From: a bacterium
GTDB lineage: Bacteria > Cyanobacteriota > Vampirovibrionia > Gastranaerophilales > JBAXKC01
Direction of reading: 5' to 3'
Assembly (NCBI GenBank): GCA_037137535.1
Contig: JBAXKC010000008.1
Span: 1 to 64,000 of the forward strand
Length of the DNA: 64,000 nt
In this document: positions 7,797 to 62,185 of the stretch, piece by piece
How positions within the stretch are numbered: position 1 is the first letter of the stretch
Layout of the letters: every line of letters begins with the position of its first letter
Position numbers and translations under genes: made by a program
The notes under the pieces: model-generated
What the model saw: the letters and a program-made list of their open reading frames with translations, nothing else
The model's database searches: none
What the model was told of the DNA's origin: nothing

Positions 7797-7912
7797 TTGT
7801 ATATTACTTTAATATTCTACTTAATAATATTATTAAGTTATGTAACATATTATTGAATTATCACATAAAAACATTAAAGTTTAGAGTGATCTAGCCGATT
7901 TATATAATATAA

Positions 7913-7984
7913 GACCAAATAAATGGTCATACCCCAACCTCCTCCCCAAAGTCTGGTAGCCGCCCAAAAGGTGGCTTTTATTTT
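7913..7984 (+). ncRNA. Candidate small regulatory RNA (5' hairpin, C-rich single-stranded tract, terminator)
   Basis: TATAAT at 7903-7908; hairpin GACCA-AATAAA-TGGTC (7913-7928); ATACCCCAACCTCCTCCCC tract; terminator that pairs fully only on the + strand although both flanking genes are on -. Confidence 0.55.
7958..7984 (+). terminator. Rho-independent terminator (+ strand)
   Basis: AGCCGCC-CAAAA-GGTGGCT then TTTATTTT; the G:U pair works on +, would be a C:A mismatch on -. Confidence 0.75.
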
Positions 7985-51350: not shown

Positions 51351-51382
51351 CGCAATTTTTATATACTGAATGTTTTTATATA
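51351..51382 (+). promoter_or_regulatory. Putative promoter, variant of the GCAA-N15-TTTATATA motif
   Basis: CGCAA-TTTTTATATACTGAA-TGTTTTTATATA, ~40 nt upstream of the ATG at 51422. Confidence 0.4.
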
Positions 51383-51421
51383 TATAAGCAGTATATATTT
51401 AGTTTGAAGGAGATAAGTATT

Positions 51422-55736: not shown

Positions 55737-56449
55737 AAACCGAGCATTTCAGCTAATTCAGCATTATAAGTAAATTCATCGTTAAATTTACTTTCAAAAC
55801 CTTTTTTTAAGAAACATGGCAAGTTTTTATAATAGTCAATATTCGGATTAATTTCTGTAAGAGAAGTTATTGTGTTTTTATCGTAATAATCTTCAAAAAT
55901 TGCTTTATGCAATAAATCATCAATATCAATCAAAATAGAGCCATGCTGCAAAATATAGTTATTTTTTCGATACTGTGCACTACCTATAATTTTTTTACCG
56001 TTGTAATTCAAGTCAGAACCTGTTGACAAAGCCATACAAAAGCCCTTATCAACGCTTACTTTTTTATACTCAGGAAATGATAATTTTATACCTAATAAAT
56101 CTAAACCTACAATTAATGCTTCTGAAATTTCTTTATAAGAACTAATAACAGTAGAGCCTTTTTCTAAAAAATCAGCTTTACATACAAAACTGTAAGTTAT
56201 TTCTAAATGATGTAAAACTGCTCGACCACCAGTAATTCTTCGTAGGACATCAATATTATTATTTTGACAATATTCGACACCAACGCTATCTAAGGGTTGA
56301 TTTCGTCCAAGAGTTAAAGTAGGTTTGTCCCATCCGTAAAGCCTTAAAATTGGAGCAGATTCACTTTCGATAGAATAATCTAAAATATTTGCATCAATTT
56401 CCATATTTTTTTTGCCATCTAATATTTGATAAGGCAAAAGATTATACAT
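55730..56449 (-). CDS. Lipoate-protein ligase/octanoyltransferase family (LplA/LipM-like)
   Basis: NMEID, LRLYGW, TLGRNQ, RRITGGRAVLH, KIIGSAQ, LQHGSI. Confidence 0.9.
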   Translation of the reverse strand: MYNLLPYQILDGKKNMEIDANILDYSIESESAPILRLYGWDKPTLTLGRNQPLDSVGVEYCQNNNIDVLRRITGGRAVLHHLEITYSFVCKADFLEKGSTVISSYKEISEALIVGLDLLGIKLSFPEYKKVSVDKGFCMALSTGSDLNYNGKKIIGSAQYRKNNYILQHGSILIDIDDLLHKAIFEDYYDKNTITSLTEINPNIDYYKNLPCFLKKGFESKFNDEFTYNAELAEMLGLC

Positions 56450-56451
56450 GA

Positions 56452-56754
56452 TTAATGTTTATCCTCATGATGAAACGGATATGGCGCAGGAGGCTGAGAA
56501 TAAGAAGATTTATACTTAAAAGAAAAATGGAAAGGATAAGAATTTTTTTCCAAAGTATATTTTACTAAATATAAATCTTCTAGTGCTTTAGCAAATTTTT
56601 CACCAAGCTCTTCAGAAAAATGTTCGCCGCAAACCATGCAATTAACAGTTTCTTTATCTCTTAATCTTAATACATTTAAATTGAACTCATTTCCACATTT
56701 ACATTTTAATGTAATTCTCGGGAAATCTTTTTCATTAGCTTTAATATTAGTCAT
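56452..56754 (-). CDS. Small hypothetical Zn-ribbon-like protein
   Basis: CKCG...CMVCG; RBS AAGGTG; first gene of the lipoate ligase-birA run. Confidence 0.65.
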   Translation of the reverse strand: MTNIKANEKDFPRITLKCKCGNEFNLNVLRLRDKETVNCMVCGEHFSEELGEKFAKALEDLYLVKYTLEKNSYPFHFSFKYKSSYSQPPAPYPFHHEDKH

Positions 56755-56831
56755 AAATACACCTTATCTTATTTTTCAGGTTTTTATTATAATAATTTAA
56801 TGATACTCCAATAATAGAAAGATATAAATAT

Positions 56832-57608
56832 ATGAAAAAGTCATGTTTTATCGAATGTTATTCAGGTGCTGCCGGAGATATGCTTATAGCTGGTTTTTTA
56901 GGTGCATTAAATGACAAGGATTATTTTATAAATGAATTAAGTAAACTTTCAATAAAAAATGAATTTGAAATTGAAATCAAGCCAACCGTAAAAAAAGGGA
57001 TTGCATCAACTAATTTTAACGTAATTATCAAAGAACATGATCATTGTCATTCTCATGAGCATAAACATCATCACCATAGAGGTTTAAATGAAATAACTGA
57101 AATAATTAATAATTCAGATATTTCTACTGAAGCCAAAGAATTAGCTATAAAAATATTTATTAATCTTGGAGAAGCAGAAGCAAAAGTACATGGCACTACC
57201 TTAGATAAAGTTCATTTTCACGAAGTAGGAGCAATTGACTCAATTGTAGATATAGTAGGCTTTGCAATTCTATTTACAAAATTAAAAATTGAAGAAGTGA
57301 CAGTCTCTAATATAAATGTCGGAAGTGGTTTGATAAAGTGCGAACATGGTTTTATTCCTGTTCCTGCACCAGCAACGCTAGAGCTTATAAAACTATTTAA
57401 AATGCCTGTATCTTCAATAGTTAATATTAAAGGTGAAACGCTAACACCAACAGGTGCCGCAATTTTGGGAACTATCGCAACTGCATTTAATAACATTCCA
57501 AATTATGATGAAATTCAGACAATATCTTATGGTGCAGGAACTAAGGATTTTGAGGAAATTTCTAATACTCTAAGAGTTACGGTCGGAGTAGAAAAAAAAA
57601 ACACTTAA
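56832..57608 (+). CDS. larC: Nickel pincer cofactor biosynthesis protein LarC, N-terminal part
   Basis: SGAAGDM, His-rich HDHCHSHEHKHHHHR, HFHEVGAIDSIVD, HG..PVPAPAT, TPTGAA, YGAG; ends at an A10 run. Confidence 0.92.
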   Translation: MKKSCFIECYSGAAGDMLIAGFLGALNDKDYFINELSKLSIKNEFEIEIKPTVKKGIASTNFNVIIKEHDHCHSHEHKHHHHRGLNEITEIINNSDISTEAKELAIKIFINLGEAEAKVHGTTLDKVHFHEVGAIDSIVDIVGFAILFTKLKIEEVTVSNINVGSGLIKCEHGFIPVPAPATLELIKLFKMPVSSIVNIKGETLTPTGAAILGTIATAFNNIPNYDEIQTISYGAGTKDFEEISNTLRVTVGVEKKNT

Positions 57609-58051
57609 TTAATTCAGTATTTGTTATTGAAACAAATTTAGACGATATTTCTTCTGAAATTATTCCTTATGTGATAGAAAAATTAATGGAGAGTGGTGCG
57701 CTCGATGCGTTTATCACTCCTATTATTATGAAAAAAGGAAGACCTGCAAACAAATTAACTGTTTTATCCTATGAAAATACCTGCTCAATCTTAGAAGATA
57801 TAATATTTAATGAAACAAAAACTCTTGGTCTAAGAAAATATAAAACTGATCGAATAATTCAAAATAGAAAAACAGAAATAATAAATATACCAGATCTTGG
57901 CGAAGTACGAATTAAATATAACCTCAATAAAAATGGAGAAATATTGTCTGCTAAACCAGAATATGAAGATTGCAAAAAATTAGCAGTTGAAACAAATCAA
58001 CCCCTAATTAATATCATGACTAAAATCTCAAAAGTTATACAGAAAACATAA
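57599..58051 (+). CDS. larC: LarC C-terminal part (-1 frame, reached by frameshift)
   Basis: The -1 frame is open from the A-run: KHLINSVFVIETNLDDISSE...GALD...MKKGRP...ETKTLGLR...KPEYED. Confidence 0.88.
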   Translation, partial: KHLINSVFVIETNLDDISSEIIPYVIEKLMESGALDAFITPIIMKKGRPANKLTVLSYENTCSILEDIIFNETKTLGLRKYKTDRIIQNRKTEIINIPDLGEVRIKYNLNKNGEILSAKPEYEDCKKLAVETNQPLINIMTKISKVIQKT

Positions 58052-58112
58052 CATAAACTACGTTAAGTTTGTTGTATATCCATAAAGATAATCATACTTT
58101 TTACTTTGGGAG

Positions 58113-58149
58113 ATAAACGCTCATTACGTTATTGTAATTGAGCGTTTAT
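58113..58149. terminator. Hairpin at the 3' end of the 95-aa gene, between convergent genes
   Basis: ATAAACGCTCA...TGAGCGTTTAT inverted repeat overlapping the stop codon. Confidence 0.55.
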
Positions 58150-58433
58150 GCAAAGTACTTGAATGAAGACTCAATATTTTTATCTACAACCTTTTTGGCT
58201 GATTCCAATTCAGTTTCAATCATTTTATGTTGAGCTTCAATTTGCTTTTGTTGTAGCTCTAATTGTTTATTCAATTCAAAAACTTGTTTCTGAATATTAT
58301 CATCATTCATAAAATTCTGTGCTTGAGCACTCAAATTCATCTCTTTTTGACAAATTCTTTGCATTTGAAACTCTAAAGTACTCTTTTGATCCGTTAACAA
58401 TAGTACACGGGCCTGACCTGCTACTAAACCCAT
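58146..58433 (-). CDS. Small coiled-coil hypothetical protein (MGL.A.QAR...IESSFKYF type)
   Basis: 95 aa, all-helical Q/E/K-rich; RBS AGGGGGA; resembles a family I recall as expanded in Gastranaerophilales (not verified here). Confidence 0.75.
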   Translation of the reverse strand: MGLVAGQARVLLLTDQKSTLEFQMQRICQKEMNLSAQAQNFMNDDNIQKQVFELNKQLELQQKQIEAQHKMIETELESAKKVVDKNIESSFKYFA

Positions 58434-58593
58434 AATTAGTTCCCCCTAAGACTCCCACGTCTTTAAAAACTATATTCCCCAAGATAATAATTATAATTTT
58501 TTATATATATTGATAAATACCCCAATCCCCTAGACTTCTTTAAGTCATTTCAGATAATATTGTTTGGATTAATTCCTCCTTTCATCAAAAGAT

Positions 58594-58780
58594 CCAAACA
58601 AATTGTCATACCCCTTATCTCCTAAATATCCCCTAAATCCCAAATTCTTTAAATTTCTATAAAAAGTTAACCAAATAAATGTCCATACCCCTAAACTTCC
58701 TTTTGTAAACCATCCCCTAATTTTTTATAACATATTAAATATTTTTATAAAAAAATGTTTCAAACAAATGGTCATACCCC
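58594..58780. repeat. Three degenerate 21-bp direct repeats, also present at 7915-7935
   Basis: CCAAACAAATTGTCATACCCC 58594-58614; CCAAATAAATGTCCATACCCC 58671-58691; TCAAACAAATGGTCATACCCC 58760-58780; CCAAATAAATGGTCATACCCC 7915-7935. Confidence 0.9.
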
Positions 58781-58903
58781 AGAACCTGCCTTTTATCCCT
58801 CCTAACTCTTAAAATAATCTAAATTTAAATATCATTATAATTTTCTAATTCACTAAGGCTTTATTTTCTCTATCCTTCTTGTTTCTGATTTATACCTTAC
58901 ATA

Positions 58904-58977
58904 TATATAAACAATATATCGGATTAAAAATTGCTAAACATGTATATAATCTCTCCATGTATTGTAATATTTCTTAA
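58904..58977 (-). promoter_or_regulatory. Putative promoter AGCAA-N15-ATTGTTTATATA with upstream TTAAGAAATATTA box
   Basis: Same boxes as 12922-12983; would give the 95-aa gene a ~460-nt leader. Confidence 0.55.
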
Positions 58978-58980
58978 TAT

Positions 58981-59009
58981 TTGCAAAAAACAATAATTCA
59001 ACTTAAAAT
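58981..59009 (+). promoter_or_regulatory. Sigma70-like promoter for the 59037 gene
   Basis: TTGCAA-17nt-TAAAAT. Confidence 0.55.
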
Positions 59010-59036
59010 GTTGTTGTAGCTAACTTTTGGGGATTT

Positions 59037-59777
59037 TTGAATATGACTGCAAAGAAAATACTAAGTACATTAATATTACTTACGGCACTAACAACAGCCT
59101 CTCAATCCTATGCGGGTGATAATACATATATACAAAATATGTACAGCAAACCCTTAAATCTTATTGAAAGTAGCATACAGACTCAAAGAATCCCAGCAGG
59201 TACTCTAATAAATTTAAGACTTGAAACTCCTATAAATTCCTTAACATCACGCTCTGGCAGCGAATTCAACGCAACAGTTATAGAAAATGTAAAAATTGGA
59301 AAAAAAGTTGTATTACCTATTGGGTCGCTAGTAAGAGGAATTGTCTGTGTATCGAAAAAAAATACATTTGTATCTCAACCTGGTTATTTAAGTTTAACTT
59401 TTGATCATGTAGTTACACCATTAGGTAAACAACTACCAATAGTTGTAAGAACAAACAATTTAAATGCAAATAAAGACGATATTATCAAAGGTGAAGGCGG
59501 CTATTTCAGAGCAGTAAATAATCATTTTGAAAAGAGCATTGATATCCTTGATAATACAACCGTGTGGGGGTATAAAAAAGGGAAATCATTTGCTAAAGGG
59601 ATACCTGCTATAATAACTACTCCTATATGTGCTTTAGGTGGTTCTGTATATGGAAGTTCTTATTTTGCATACAACACGTTTATGTCTTTCTTTAGAAAAG
59701 GTGACAATGTAATATTGAATCCAGGTCAAAACATTCAAATAATCTCAAAAGAAGATATAGATTTAGTATTAAATTAG
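59037..59777 (+). CDS. Exported protein with a TrbI/VirB10-like beta domain
   Basis: Signal peptide; IPAGT.I.LRLETPINS...G..F.A.V...V......LP.GS.V.G; C-terminal KGDNVILNPG. Confidence 0.7.
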   Translation: MNMTAKKILSTLILLTALTTASQSYAGDNTYIQNMYSKPLNLIESSIQTQRIPAGTLINLRLETPINSLTSRSGSEFNATVIENVKIGKKVVLPIGSLVRGIVCVSKKNTFVSQPGYLSLTFDHVVTPLGKQLPIVVRTNNLNANKDDIIKGEGGYFRAVNNHFEKSIDILDNTTVWGYKKGKSFAKGIPAIITTPICALGGSVYGSSYFAYNTFMSFFRKGDNVILNPGQNIQIISKEDIDLVLN

Positions 59778-59786
59778 GTATTAAAA

Positions 59787-61064
59787 GTGATTGTAGAAAT
59801 TTTATGTATCGGAGAAGAATTACTCTCTGGTAAAACAATTAATTCAAATTCAGCCTATCTTTCTGAAAAAATGGAAAATATAGGACATGAAGTTTTATAT
59901 CATTCTGTAGTTGGTGATAATCCGAAGCGTATATTTGAATGTTTGGATATAGCTTTAGAAAGAGCTGATATAATTCTCATAACAGGTGGTCTAGGTCCTA
60001 CTGATGATGATTTGACAATAGAAACATTGGCTGAATATTTAGGACTTACGTTAATTTTTCATCAATCTATCTTAGATAAAATTGAATTAATATATAAAAA
60101 TACAGGTAGAACTGCAACAGAAATGTGCAAAAAACAAGCCTTAATCCCACAAAATGCTACAATTATATCTAATAATATCGGTACAGCAGCAGGTGTTTTA
60201 TTAGAGTTTAAAGAAAATAAAAGACTGAATAAAAAATATAATTCCACAAAAATTATTGCGGCTTATCCAGGAGTTCCATATGAAATGAAGGATATGTGGG
60301 AAACTCAATCGGAGCAGTTCTTTAAAAATAAAGCTACTAACATAACAATAGTCAAAGACTTAAAGTTTATAGGTATTCCGGAAGCAAAACTAGCTGAAAA
60401 AGTCAAAGATATACTTCAACAAGAAAATCCGACTGTAGCTCCTTATGTTTCAGCAGGAGAAGTAACGTTAAGGATAAAATCTAAAGCTATTTATGAGAGT
60501 GAAGCTCAATTATTATTAAATCAAACAGAAGAAAAAATATTAAATAAAGCAAATGAATTTTATTATGGATTTAATGATAATTCTTTAGAAGAAATTATTG
60601 GAAACCTGTTAAGTAAAAATAATTTAACTTTATCAATTGCAGAGTCTTGTACAGGCGGATTATTAAGTTCTAAACTTACTGATGTAAGCGGTAGTTCGAA
60701 ATATATTTTTTTAAATTTAGTAAGCTATTCAAATGAAGCAAAAAAACAAATGCTTGGAGTAAAAAATGAAACACTTGAAAAATATGGAGCGGTCAGCAAA
60801 GAAACAGTAACTGAAATGGCTCAAGGTATAAGAAAACTTGCCAATACTGATATAGGAGTTGCAATTAGCGGTATAGCAGGCCCTACTGGTGGCACAGAAA
60901 ATAAACAGGTAGGTCTTATTTATTTAGCTATAGAGATTAATAACAAAATTGAAACCTATGAAATCAAGATTTCCAATAAATTTAATCGAATTCAAATAAA
61001 AGAAAGAGCCGCAAAACAAGCCTTGAATTTCTTGAGAAAATCAATTTTAAATTATTTAGGTTAA
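59787..61064 (+). CDS. cinA: Competence/damage-inducible protein A (MoCF-like plus PncC domains)
   Basis: IGEELLSG, TGGLGPT.DD.T, PGVP.EM, AESCTGG, GAVS.E....MA.G, SGIAGP.GG. Confidence 0.95.
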   Translation: MIVEILCIGEELLSGKTINSNSAYLSEKMENIGHEVLYHSVVGDNPKRIFECLDIALERADIILITGGLGPTDDDLTIETLAEYLGLTLIFHQSILDKIELIYKNTGRTATEMCKKQALIPQNATIISNNIGTAAGVLLEFKENKRLNKKYNSTKIIAAYPGVPYEMKDMWETQSEQFFKNKATNITIVKDLKFIGIPEAKLAEKVKDILQQENPTVAPYVSAGEVTLRIKSKAIYESEAQLLLNQTEEKILNKANEFYYGFNDNSLEEIIGNLLSKNNLTLSIAESCTGGLLSSKLTDVSGSSKYIFLNLVSYSNEAKKQMLGVKNETLEKYGAVSKETVTEMAQGIRKLANTDIGVAISGIAGPTGGTENKQVGLIYLAIEINNKIETYEIKISNKFNRIQIKERAAKQALNFLRKSILNYLG

Positions 61065-61108
61065 ATCTATATTTTGCCCCCTTTTATTTATTTAATCAAT
61101 AAGTTAAT

Positions 61109-62185
61109 ATGAATAAAGATAATAAAGTTGAGGCTTTAATGAACAAATTGAATCCATTTAGCAACATTAAAAAAGTAAAAGCTAATATTACTATGAGCAT
61201 GCTTGCTGTGTCAGTAGTAGTTGCTTGTGTTGTGGGAACTGTATGTATTCTGAAAAGCAATGAAATCATAATTAGAGAGTCAAAAAAATTAATTGTAATA
61301 AATGCACAAAATGAATCAGGTAAAATTTATAAAGACTTTTTAAAAGTTGAAAAATCAGTAGATAATCTTTCAAATGTAGTAACAGGCTCTATTGAATCTA
61401 AAAATCTTACTAATTCTTCCTATATGAAAAATTACGATAAATTACTCGTTGTAATTACTCAAGAATTTGCTAAAAATACTGATTGGAACATGAGCTCATA
61501 TATTTATTTTGTTCCAGATGTTACTAAAGGAATATACGGAGCTTGGGTTGTTTATGATCCTAAAACTGATAGTTTTAAAAATATACCTGATATTGCGATG
61601 AAAAATGAATTTAAAGCAAGTAATAAAAATTTTGTTTGGTATTACAATGCAATCAATGCTAAGAAAGGTGTATGGACAAACCTTTATCTTGATAATGATT
61701 TAAAAACACCAATGATTTCCTATTCAAAACCTATAAAAATAAAGAATAAAATATCAGCTGTTATTGGAATGGATATATCTGTTGAAAATTTAAACAGAAT
61801 GGTTAAAAATATCAAACTTTACAAAGAAAATGAGTGTTTACTAATTGATAATAATTATAATATTATTGCAAACAATGAAAATTACACAAATAAAGACAAC
61901 TTGAAAGAAATAGAAAATGGCAAATATAAATATTTAATAGAACAATCTAAAAATAAAAAGACGGGGTTAGCTACATATAAAGATGATGGCGTAGAAAAAT
62001 TTGCATCCTATTCAACTTTACCTAATGGTTATAAATTATTCTTATCAGTACCTGTTTCCGAAGTATTAAAAGCAATGATTGAATTAAGAATATTGCTTAT
62101 TTTAATAATTATCCTAGTAATTATTATAGTTGATGTTTTCGCCATTGGATTTGTTAATAGTTTATTAGAAACAGACGAAGATTAA
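61109..62185 (+). CDS. Stand-alone dCache sensor-domain membrane protein
   Basis: TM1, WYYNA....G.WT..Y.D, MISYSKPI, VIGMDI, LID....IIA, TM2; ends ~8 aa after TM2. Confidence 0.8.
   Translation: MNKDNKVEALMNKLNPFSNIKKVKANITMSMLAVSVVVACVVGTVCILKSNEIIIRESKKLIVINAQNESGKIYKDFLKVEKSVDNLSNVVTGSIESKNLTNSSYMKNYDKLLVVITQEFAKNTDWNMSSYIYFVPDVTKGIYGAWVVYDPKTDSFKNIPDIAMKNEFKASNKNFVWYYNAINAKKGVWTNLYLDNDLKTPMISYSKPIKIKNKISAVIGMDISVENLNRMVKNIKLYKENECLLIDNNYNIIANNENYTNKDNLKEIENGKYKYLIEQSKNKKTGLATYKDDGVEKFASYSTLPNGYKLFLSVPVSEVLKAMIELRILLILIIILVIIIVDVFAIGFVNSLLETDED

Follow-up and report, generated by a model that had tools for sequence, protein, structure and literature searches.

RoxS, a C-rich small regulatory RNA (sRNA), targets G-rich ribosome-binding sites by means of its C-rich regions. 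In Bacillus subtilis, RosA has been described as an RNA sponge of RoxS, and pairing between the two affects the level, processing, and activity of RoxS (PMC8216469). Here, we describe a repeat array within positions 58434-58900 of a 64,000-nt stretch of DNA (the window; contig JBAXKC010000008.1, positions 1 to 64,000) from a bacterium of the order Gastranaerophilales (GCA_037137535.1). The array is a candidate target and sponge of another C-rich sRNA, whose genes carry promoters of the flagellar sigma factor FliA (sigma-28). To our knowledge, sigma-28-dependent sRNA control of flagella has been worked out in only a few proteobacteria. In Escherichia coli, sRNAs that depend on sigma-28 (UhpU, MotR, FliX, and FlgO) overlay post-transcriptional control on flagellar synthesis (PMC10578931). 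In Campylobacter jejuni, the FliA-dependent CJnc170 (FlmR) and the RpoN-dependent CJnc230 (FlmE) have opposing effects on filament length, and the flgM and Cj1387c mRNAs are repressed (PMC11187230). A literature search on small RNAs in Melainabacteria returned nothing relevant.

The repeats are a real and unusual feature. A 20-mer, CAAAYAAATKKYCATACCCC, matches the plus strand of the window at 7916, 58595, 58672, and 58761 (four matches, against none in 100 shuffles). An earlier note on this DNA had described the same repeat with one more preceding base, as a 21-mer starting at 7915, 58594, 58671, and 58760 with array spacers of 56 and 68 nt; these positions and gaps were correct, although the first base at 58760 is T and not C. 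The array 21-mers lie 77 and 89 nt apart from start to start, and a repeat search placed them in one direct-repeat family. In the 2.95-Mb genome (31% G+C), the 20-mer occurs 12 times, nine times within complete sRNA genes of ~75 nt and three times in the array. No further match was found in the genome at up to two mismatches, and those at 3-4 mismatches were unrelated. Since all 12 copies are confined to the nine sRNA genes and the three units, the motif is not scattered like a repetitive extragenic palindrome (REP) or a miniature inverted-repeat transposable element (MITE), and a dispersed repeat of this kind was rejected. The elements of the array are as follows.

58517-58536, plus strand: "copy 0," a degenerate relic of the sRNA core, ATACCCCAATCCCCTAGACT, without the 20-mer (E 0.094 with the order-wide sRNA profile in nhmmer, 2.4-kb search)
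58594-58641, plus strand: unit 1, the 21-mer CCAAACAAATTGTCATACCCC followed by the tail TTATCTCC..ATCCCC..TCCC
58671-58717, plus strand: unit 2, CCAAATAAATGTCCATACCCC followed by the tail TAAACTTCC..ATCCCC
58760-58802, plus strand: unit 3, TCAAACAAATGGTCATACCCC followed by the tail AGAACCTGCC..TCCCTCC (sRNA-profile E 0.0013)
58857-58868, plus strand: possible weak relic of the 3' half of the sRNA terminator, GGCTTTATTTT, without a stem (profile E 2.3, not significant)

The partner of the array proved to be a genuine sRNA, as the earlier note had supposed, and to be multi-copy. One of its nine genes lies in the window.

7875-7901, plus strand: promoter of the sigma-28 (FliA) type, TAAAGTTT-N11-GCCGATTT, read from the sequence and the alignment of the nine copies
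7910-7984 (start approximate), plus strand: sRNA gene with the 5' hairpin GACCA-AAUAAA-UGGUC, the single-stranded core AUACCCCAACCUCCUCCCCAAAGUCUGGUA, and a terminator consisting of a GC hairpin and a U-run

Folding gave the nine copies a common layout, namely the 5' hairpin GACCA-AACAAA-UGGUC, the single-stranded AUACCCCAACCUCCUCCCCAAAGUCUGGUA, a GC hairpin, and a U-run. The promoter TAAAGTTT-N11-GCCGATAA, which is the FliA consensus as published (PMC7286023), or a variant differing by 1-2 bases, precedes 9/9 copies, and sigma-28 boxes are kept at 18 of the 22 sRNA loci of relatives. When sequences were folded individually, 21 of 24 distinct 5' ends formed a hairpin (-3.6 to -9.1 kcal/mol), with differing stems (GACC/GGUC, GGUC/GACC, AGCCU/AGGCU, GACCC/GGGUC); RNAalifold missed this hairpin since MAFFT misaligns the variable loops. 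The terminator pairs are preserved in 23 sRNA sequences, and the core is C-rich and anti-Shine-Dalgarno (anti-SD). Within this genome, 8/9 sRNA genes have an identical 5' hairpin loop. Variation among the genes is seen in the loop of the terminator, in the promoter spacer, and between the -10 box and the start. Such invariance amid variable positions suggests a sequence-level constraint on the very part that the array matches.

The sRNA had no match in Rfam, with nothing at E<=1. By BLAST, the family was found in 32 of 41 genomes of the order; of the 24 genomes sampled from the largest family, 23 have its core pattern, compared with 0/96 genomes of the other orders of the class. Copy number ranges from one in each of the 23 largest-family genomes, through 2-6 BLAST matches in some other families, to nine here. 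The genome encodes FliA (above the NCBIfam cut-off), CsrA, and seven flagellin-N genes, and one flagellin gene has the same sigma-28 promoter. In most of the nine sRNA copies, AAATAAA(A/G)NNC stands directly before TAAAGTTT. Most also have a TTAAGTTTTGTTAA-like block about 60-75 nt ahead of the hairpin (e.g., at ~7838-7850), which may be an UP element or a regulator site.

The three array units retain the hairpin loop, the 3' arm, and the ATACCCC of this lineage's sRNA, which together make up the 20-mer, and a degenerate C-rich tail. They have no promoter, hairpin, or terminator: no sigma-28 box was found upstream of the units, their plus-strand 5' ends fold at 0.0 kcal/mol in 3/3 cases, so that the family hairpin is absent, and no terminator-like site was found within 58100-59100. 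This agrees with the lack of 5' hairpins and terminators reported in the earlier note. Beyond each 20-mer, AACCTCC is loosely echoed, and an AT-rich insert of 6-12 nt separates this echo from a TCCCC or TCCCTCC. Thus, the C-rich tails that had been likened to AACCTCC do resemble it, but loosely and interrupted by the inserts; the invariant sRNA core AAYCUCYUCCCC(A)AGUCURGUA is likewise no more than loosely echoed. The combination of ATACCCC with a C-rich, G-poor tail occurs at the array only. Because the sigma-28 promoter, the 5' hairpin, and the terminator are absent, the units are not ordinary plus-strand paralogs, and their functional membership in the sRNA family on the plus strand is rejected on promoter, hairpin, core, and terminator. 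The alternative of a tandem array of paralogous plus-strand sRNAs, which had been offered earlier, falls on the same grounds. The TATAAA that accompanied it does stand upstream of units 2 and 3, although at 8-9 nt and not 7-8 nt.

The array lies in the leader of a minus-strand gene for a protein of 95 amino acids (aa), and the surrounding features are listed below.

58146-58433, minus strand: 95-aa gene downstream of the leader, a member of a Melainabacteria-restricted family of helical-hairpin paralogs with no assigned function
58442-58446, minus strand: GGGGG (UUAGGGGGAAC), at which ribosomes would bind to translate the 95-aa gene; this site is conserved in orthologs, of which those in relatives G013 and G005 have TTAGGGGGTAC
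58898-58936, minus strand: bipartite promoter-like element GCAATTTT-N13-TGTTTATATATAT, the putative start of the ~460-nt leader
58981-59009, plus strand: sigma-70-like promoter TTGCAA-17-TAAAAT (9/12 matches) lying downstream of the array and belonging to the divergent 246-aa TrbI-like gene

The TrbI-like gene (plus strand, from 59037/59043) diverges from the 95-aa gene, and this pair is syntenic in seven relatives of several families. The minus-strand promoter-like motif at 58904-58935 reported in the earlier note is real and forms part of the conserved bipartite element; the TrbI-like gene also has, as claimed, its own sigma-70-like promoter downstream of the repeats, whose -35 region is conserved by eye in the relatives' intergenic regions. 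In 6/9 orthologs of relatives, 70-80 nt separate the promoter element from the ATG (a seventh row, at 124 nt, concerns a different stretch and is outside this count), versus 464 nt here. The start of the ancestral 5' untranslated region (UTR; GAGAAAATAAAGCC) and its ribosome-binding site (UUAGGGGG) are still recognisable by eye at the two ends of the additional sequence. Given the displaced promoter element and the recognisable UTR ends, the array is best read as a lineage-specific insert of ~390 nt between the conserved promoter and the ribosome-binding site of the 95-aa gene. The earlier placement of the repeats upstream of this gene is thus sharpened: they lie inside an ancestral 5' UTR, downstream of a promoter that belongs to a class.

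With <=1 mismatch allowed in each box, this class, GCAATTTT-N11-14-TGTTTTTATATATA, has 23 copies in the genome and 0 in the reversed control, and with <=1/<=2 mismatches the counts are 35 and 0; the motif typically lies 13-118 nt from the start codon (43 genes). Two further paralogs of the 95-aa family have the bipartite promoter, and two others carry sigma-28 boxes. A sigma-28 reading of the minus-strand promoter itself was dropped, as CCGATATA is present here and absent in the orthologs, and the promoter was reassigned to the bipartite class. The class is probably the regulon of one of the several FliA-like sigma factors of the genome. Matches to the FliA_WhiG model in the genome numbered 11, of which eight are distinct loci at E <= 1e-12. 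Class members lie at 58898-58936 (minus strand) and 51352-51385 (plus strand) of the window and at about 20-40 other places in the genome; the genes of the class usually encode S-, N-, T-, and Q-rich products that start with MG.., MS.., or MI..

Promoter class and UTR homology argue for transcription of the minus strand through the array. The 467-nt leader region (58434-58900) contains 105 C and 25 G on the plus strand, the most extreme C-over-G skew of all 400-nt windows of the genome, so that a minus-strand RNA would be G-rich; its predicted fold is no more structured than that of shuffles (z +0.5). A C-rich transcript of the opposite strand has to be considered too, either a rightward, multi-seed, sRNA-like RNA or a long alternative leader of the 246-aa gene, with C-rich boxes that would base-pair to ribosome-binding sites rich in G, whether its own (UUUUGGGGAUU) or another gene's. 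The units are co-oriented with the sRNA genes and keep their C-rich boxes, two of them follow the TATAAA mentioned above, and the plus-strand RNA folds below mononucleotide shuffles in energy (z -4.2). In addition, an AT-rich box at 58498-58509, just upstream of copy 0, resembles the second half of the family promoter, sharing 15 identical nt with the second box of the promoter of the G005 ortholog. However, it has neither an upstream GCAATTTT box nor the TG found ahead of the second box in class members, and there is no sigma-28 box. Sigma-70-like matches on this strand are at shuffle level (6 found, 6.4 expected), and no terminator precedes the 246-aa gene, which has its own conserved promoter beyond the array. 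A plus-strand RNA also gives no reason why the hairpin was destroyed in 3/3 units while the loop and 3' arm were kept. We regard a functional plus-strand product as quite unlikely.

If the minus strand is transcribed, the leader would present complements of the sRNA. Unit 3 would read exactly GGGGUAUGACCAUUUGUUUG, unit 1 would differ from it at one position, and unit 2 at three, so that the three complementary copies claimed in the earlier note are present, with exact identity in unit 3. Compared with the consensus of eight of the nine sRNA genes, the 20-mers are identical at 19/20 (unit 1), 17/20 (unit 2), and 20/20 positions (unit 3), i.e., 56/60 or 93% in total. Net cofold energies of the minus-strand sites with the sRNA were -38.2 for unit 1, -37.8 for unit 3, and -24.8 for unit 2 (-29.5 for unit 2 with the sRNA variant at 7916). 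Copy 0, read on the minus strand, gave -19.0, compared with -12.5 at the 95-aa gene's true ribosome-binding site; shuffled sites had a mean of -9.0 and a minimum of -22.5 (n=90). In a whole-genome duplex scan with an 8-mer seed filter, the minus-strand units scored -52.7, -51.7, and -40.1 (next best -42.9) and were rated the top partners of the sRNA outside the antisense of the sRNA genes themselves. Among the natural start sites, the best predicted partners are C1:112534, C27:7504, C45:3547, C15:18445, and C1:333975. They include two S/N/T-rich proteins with TTGGGGAGG ribosome-binding sites, and also genes whose N-termini resemble, judging by eye, those of the hook-associated protein FlgK and of a MotA-type stator.

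Read on the minus strand, each unit also has a Shine-Dalgarno-like (SD-like) box and, 8-9 nt after it, an AUG with which a short upstream open reading frame (uORF) begins.

58550-58609, minus strand: uORF of unit 1, 19 aa, with an SD-like AGGAGA box and AUG
58657-58686, minus strand: uORF of unit 2, 9 aa
58725-58775, minus strand: uORF of unit 3, 16 aa

These boxes open another possibility, that the G-rich leader binds proteins or ribosomes, with GGA and GGGG boxes serving CsrA, as in CsrB/RsmZ or a flagellin leader, or with decoy starts and uORFs; in that case, the units would resemble the sRNA merely through shared SD shaping. The minus-strand RNA has 16 GGA and 10 GGGG in 467 nt, against one GGA on the plus strand, each unit has its SD-like box and uORF of 9-19 aa, and a CsrA gene is present. 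Flagellar mRNAs of C. jejuni are described as being under CsrA control via GGA motifs (PMC4894983). However, about nine GGA are expected from composition, which makes the enrichment less than two-fold, and the uORF peptides are not conserved between units. SD-likeness also cannot explain how the units came to match an AU-rich, lineage-specific hairpin loop and arm at 20/20, 19/20, and 17/20 positions. As the sole explanation, this one appears unlikely, but it is compatible with, and does not exclude, a leader that pairs with the sRNA.

The pattern of conservation within the array bears on a third view, according to which the array is a decaying relic of a plus-strand tandem sRNA cluster that has lost its promoters and terminators. 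Pairing with the sRNA would then be accidental and inconsequential, and the 20-mers would be alike through recent origin or short gene conversion. Tandem sRNA clusters are normal for the family, with three copies 161 nt apart on contig C4 of this genome and gene pairs in the relatives G003, G018, G019, and G029. The order-wide sRNA profile gave five collinear partial matches on the plus strand of the array (the core relic at 58517-58531, the three units, and the insignificant terminator tail at 58858-58868), and the array is found in one genome only. However, neutral decay should be even, yet the 20-mers remain at 93% to the consensus while the flanks are near saturation: between units, identity is 80-85% in the 20-mer and about 46-58% in the flanks inside the 44-nt repeat. 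The architecture, including the AT-rich insert between CCTCC and TCCCC, is alike in kind across all three units, which suggests that one truncated module was amplified and not that three genes were truncated alike. With units spaced 77-89 nt apart, there is no room for a promoter and a gene, and all 467 nt, spacers included, are depleted in G to the extreme of the genome's skew. Finally, the nine sRNA genes differ at unconstrained positions, arguing against pervasive gene conversion. We therefore consider a mere relic rather unlikely. The four differences of the 20-mers from the consensus are each private to a single unit. Together with the uneven conservation within units and the invariance of the sRNA loop (8/9), this star-like pattern suggests that the 20-mers are constrained to match the sRNA, and the conserved part of the array is the lineage's own loop sequence, which is variable between genomes.

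Several observations weigh against a leader that pairs with the sRNA. Pairing energies cannot tell the strands apart, because any antisense copy is complementary by construction. The argument of the earlier note that three C/T differences become G:U wobbles in the minus-strand orientation did not survive: two of the three "wobbles" are one position at which the copy at 7916 departs from the other eight sRNA genes, and relative to the consensus only 1/4 of the substitutions in the array 20-mers is wobble-compatible. Unit 2 pairs much more poorly than units 1 and 3, and pairing to the universally conserved sRNA seed (CCUCCUCCCC) is less well kept than that to the variable hairpin part. At the start sites of the 43 genes of the promoter class, predicted sRNA pairing was not above that of 600 controls (median -14.0 vs -14.0, p 0.45). 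Short gene-conversion tracts from the nine sRNA genes may possibly keep the 20-mers alike without selection, and the box at 58498-58509 makes some plus-strand transcription possible.

Three metatranscriptome runs from one freshwater sample gave five contigs over 56000-62000 (161-244 nt, depth 2-4), which are strandless, have no ends, and are possibly DNA carry-over; the one over 58477-58637, also possibly DNA, has a depth of about 2, like the neighbouring genes. These contigs favour neither side. No real array was found in 400 other genomes of the order, where CATACCCC-N55-85-CATACCCC matched four unrelated places and the reversed control six. In five relatives, GGTCATACCC was found only in sRNA genes and, at control frequency, in coding sequence, and a scan of metagenome contigs for the 20-mer returned 33 loci, all of them chance matches in unrelated sequence. 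The array is known from one genome, the sole member of its family among the genomes compared.

On balance, the apparent constraint on the 20-mers, the loss of hairpin, promoter, and terminator, and the homology of the promoter and UTR favour a multi-site sRNA-binding leader. We give a probability of about 0.5 to the proposal that the sRNA can pair with high affinity at three to four sites in the minus-strand leader, which acts as both target and sponge. The interpretation of the earlier note as an sRNA-controlled leader or sponge is therefore plausible and partly supported, by the real sRNA partner, the position in a 5' UTR, and the top rank of the predicted minus-strand pairing, while its wobble argument fails.

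According to this proposal, the array would have been built from tandem, truncated copies of the organism's own FliA-dependent sRNA gene in antisense orientation. Transcription from the promoter at 58898-58936 would produce a G-rich, C-poor leader that exposes three long sites (20-27 bp each) and a weaker fourth. The sites would be complementary to the 5' hairpin loop of the sRNA, to the 3' arm of this hairpin, and to ATACCCC, with partial complementarity to the anti-SD core as well. FliA would activate the nine sRNA genes, and the sRNA would pair with the leader. Cleavage or silencing of the leader is the likeliest predicted outcome, because each site covers an SD-like box and a uORF AUG, and the leader would at the same time soak up the sRNA by mass action. 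The repeats and their anatomy, the position of the insert, the promoter class, and the complementarity are demonstrated here. What we infer from the sequence is that the array is transcribed on the minus strand, that leader and sRNA are expressed together and pair in the cell, and which way the effect runs.

A more specific scenario can be offered tentatively, although we doubt it more than the general proposal. A truncated antisense copy of the sRNA gene may have landed in the 5' UTR of a regulon gene, been amplified to three or four units, and been selected to match the lineage-specific loop and not the promiscuous anti-SD seed. The leader would then be an evolved multi-site decoy, a sponge or a sensor to which the abundance of the sRNA signals FliA activity, with no competition for ribosomes, and each unit would double as a decoy start site (SD, AUG, and uORF) masked by the sRNA.

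One additional element was found within the array.

58560-58569 with 58592-58601, either strand: perfect 10-nt inverted repeat TTGTTTGGAT / ATCCAAACAA, 22 nt apart, which would fold over the start of unit 1

In this repeat, the start of unit 1 has an sRNA-like mimic as its pairing partner, and the minus-strand loop holds AAAGGAGGAA; it could be a cis switch displaced by the sRNA. No open reading frame (ORF) of at least 40 aa was found inside the array, and those of 20-24 aa look random. A search of the window with Rfam 15 returned no family at the gathering score; the top match of the array was sbrA (E 0.18, 20 bits versus a cut-off of 45 bits).

Paralogs of the 95-aa protein occur in 201/201 genomes of the order, and a single genome can have as many as 25 matches. 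In this family, the N- and C-terminal helices are conserved and the middle varies in length (95 to about 700 aa), which recalls the architecture of flagellins. Paralogs in this genome lie at C9:24182, C15:44822-47090, and C62:8061. Against Pfam, the 95-aa protein gave nothing at E<=0.01 and only coiled-coil noise at E<=10. In the protein Atlas, it matched only "hypothetical" clusters of Melainabacteria, with Flagellin_C at 0.76 as a weak lead; a homolog with 68% identity (P0002) lies on a 70-kb contig. A Ni_insertion (Pfam, LarC-like) protein is split into two plus-strand ORFs at 56832-57608 and 57671-58051, which cover positions 2-236 and 264-374 of the profile. In lactobacilli, LarC is known in a split or frameshifted form.

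The locus provides a concrete, testable pair: a FliA-dependent anti-SD sRNA that is order-wide and unannotated, and a leader in which three long sites match it. Real pairing would show a sponge or multi-site target arising directly from antisense copies of an sRNA gene, and it would tie a large uncharacterised gene family specific to Melainabacteria, together with a promoter class, to the motility programme. If it is not, the array is still a clear example of the decay of an sRNA gene within a 5' UTR.

Among the known systems, RosA resembles the locus in that a separate RNA would pair with a regulatory sRNA and affect it. However, RosA is a free-standing, CcpA-regulated sRNA demonstrated experimentally (PMC8216469), whereas the three to four candidate sites described here, of 20-27 bp, lie in a 5' UTR, apparently derive from antisense copies of the sRNA gene, and are known from sequence alone. 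With UhpU, MotR, FliX, and FlgO of E. coli, the sRNA shares a promoter of the flagellar sigma factor. Those sRNAs are presented as UTR-derived, single-copy, and Hfq-associated (PMC10578931), whereas the sRNA described here comes from stand-alone genes, nine in number, that each have a promoter and a terminator, and it has an anti-SD C-rich core; it has no sequence relation to them (no Rfam match), and its host is a non-photosynthetic relative of cyanobacteria. CJnc170 and CJnc230 of C. jejuni are likewise linked to a tier of the flagellar cascade, where they tune late gene expression, and the abstract on them describes no multi-site leader or sponge made of sRNA copies (PMC11187230). Finally, the predicted leader is similar to the CsrB/RsmZ RNAs and to CsrA-bound flagellin leaders (PMC4894983) in being an AU-rich RNA with many GGA boxes in a genome that encodes CsrA. 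Unlike in the protein-binding CsrB/RsmZ RNAs, the boxes in this leader are attached to a 20-mer that matches an sRNA, and the leader has no terminator of its own.

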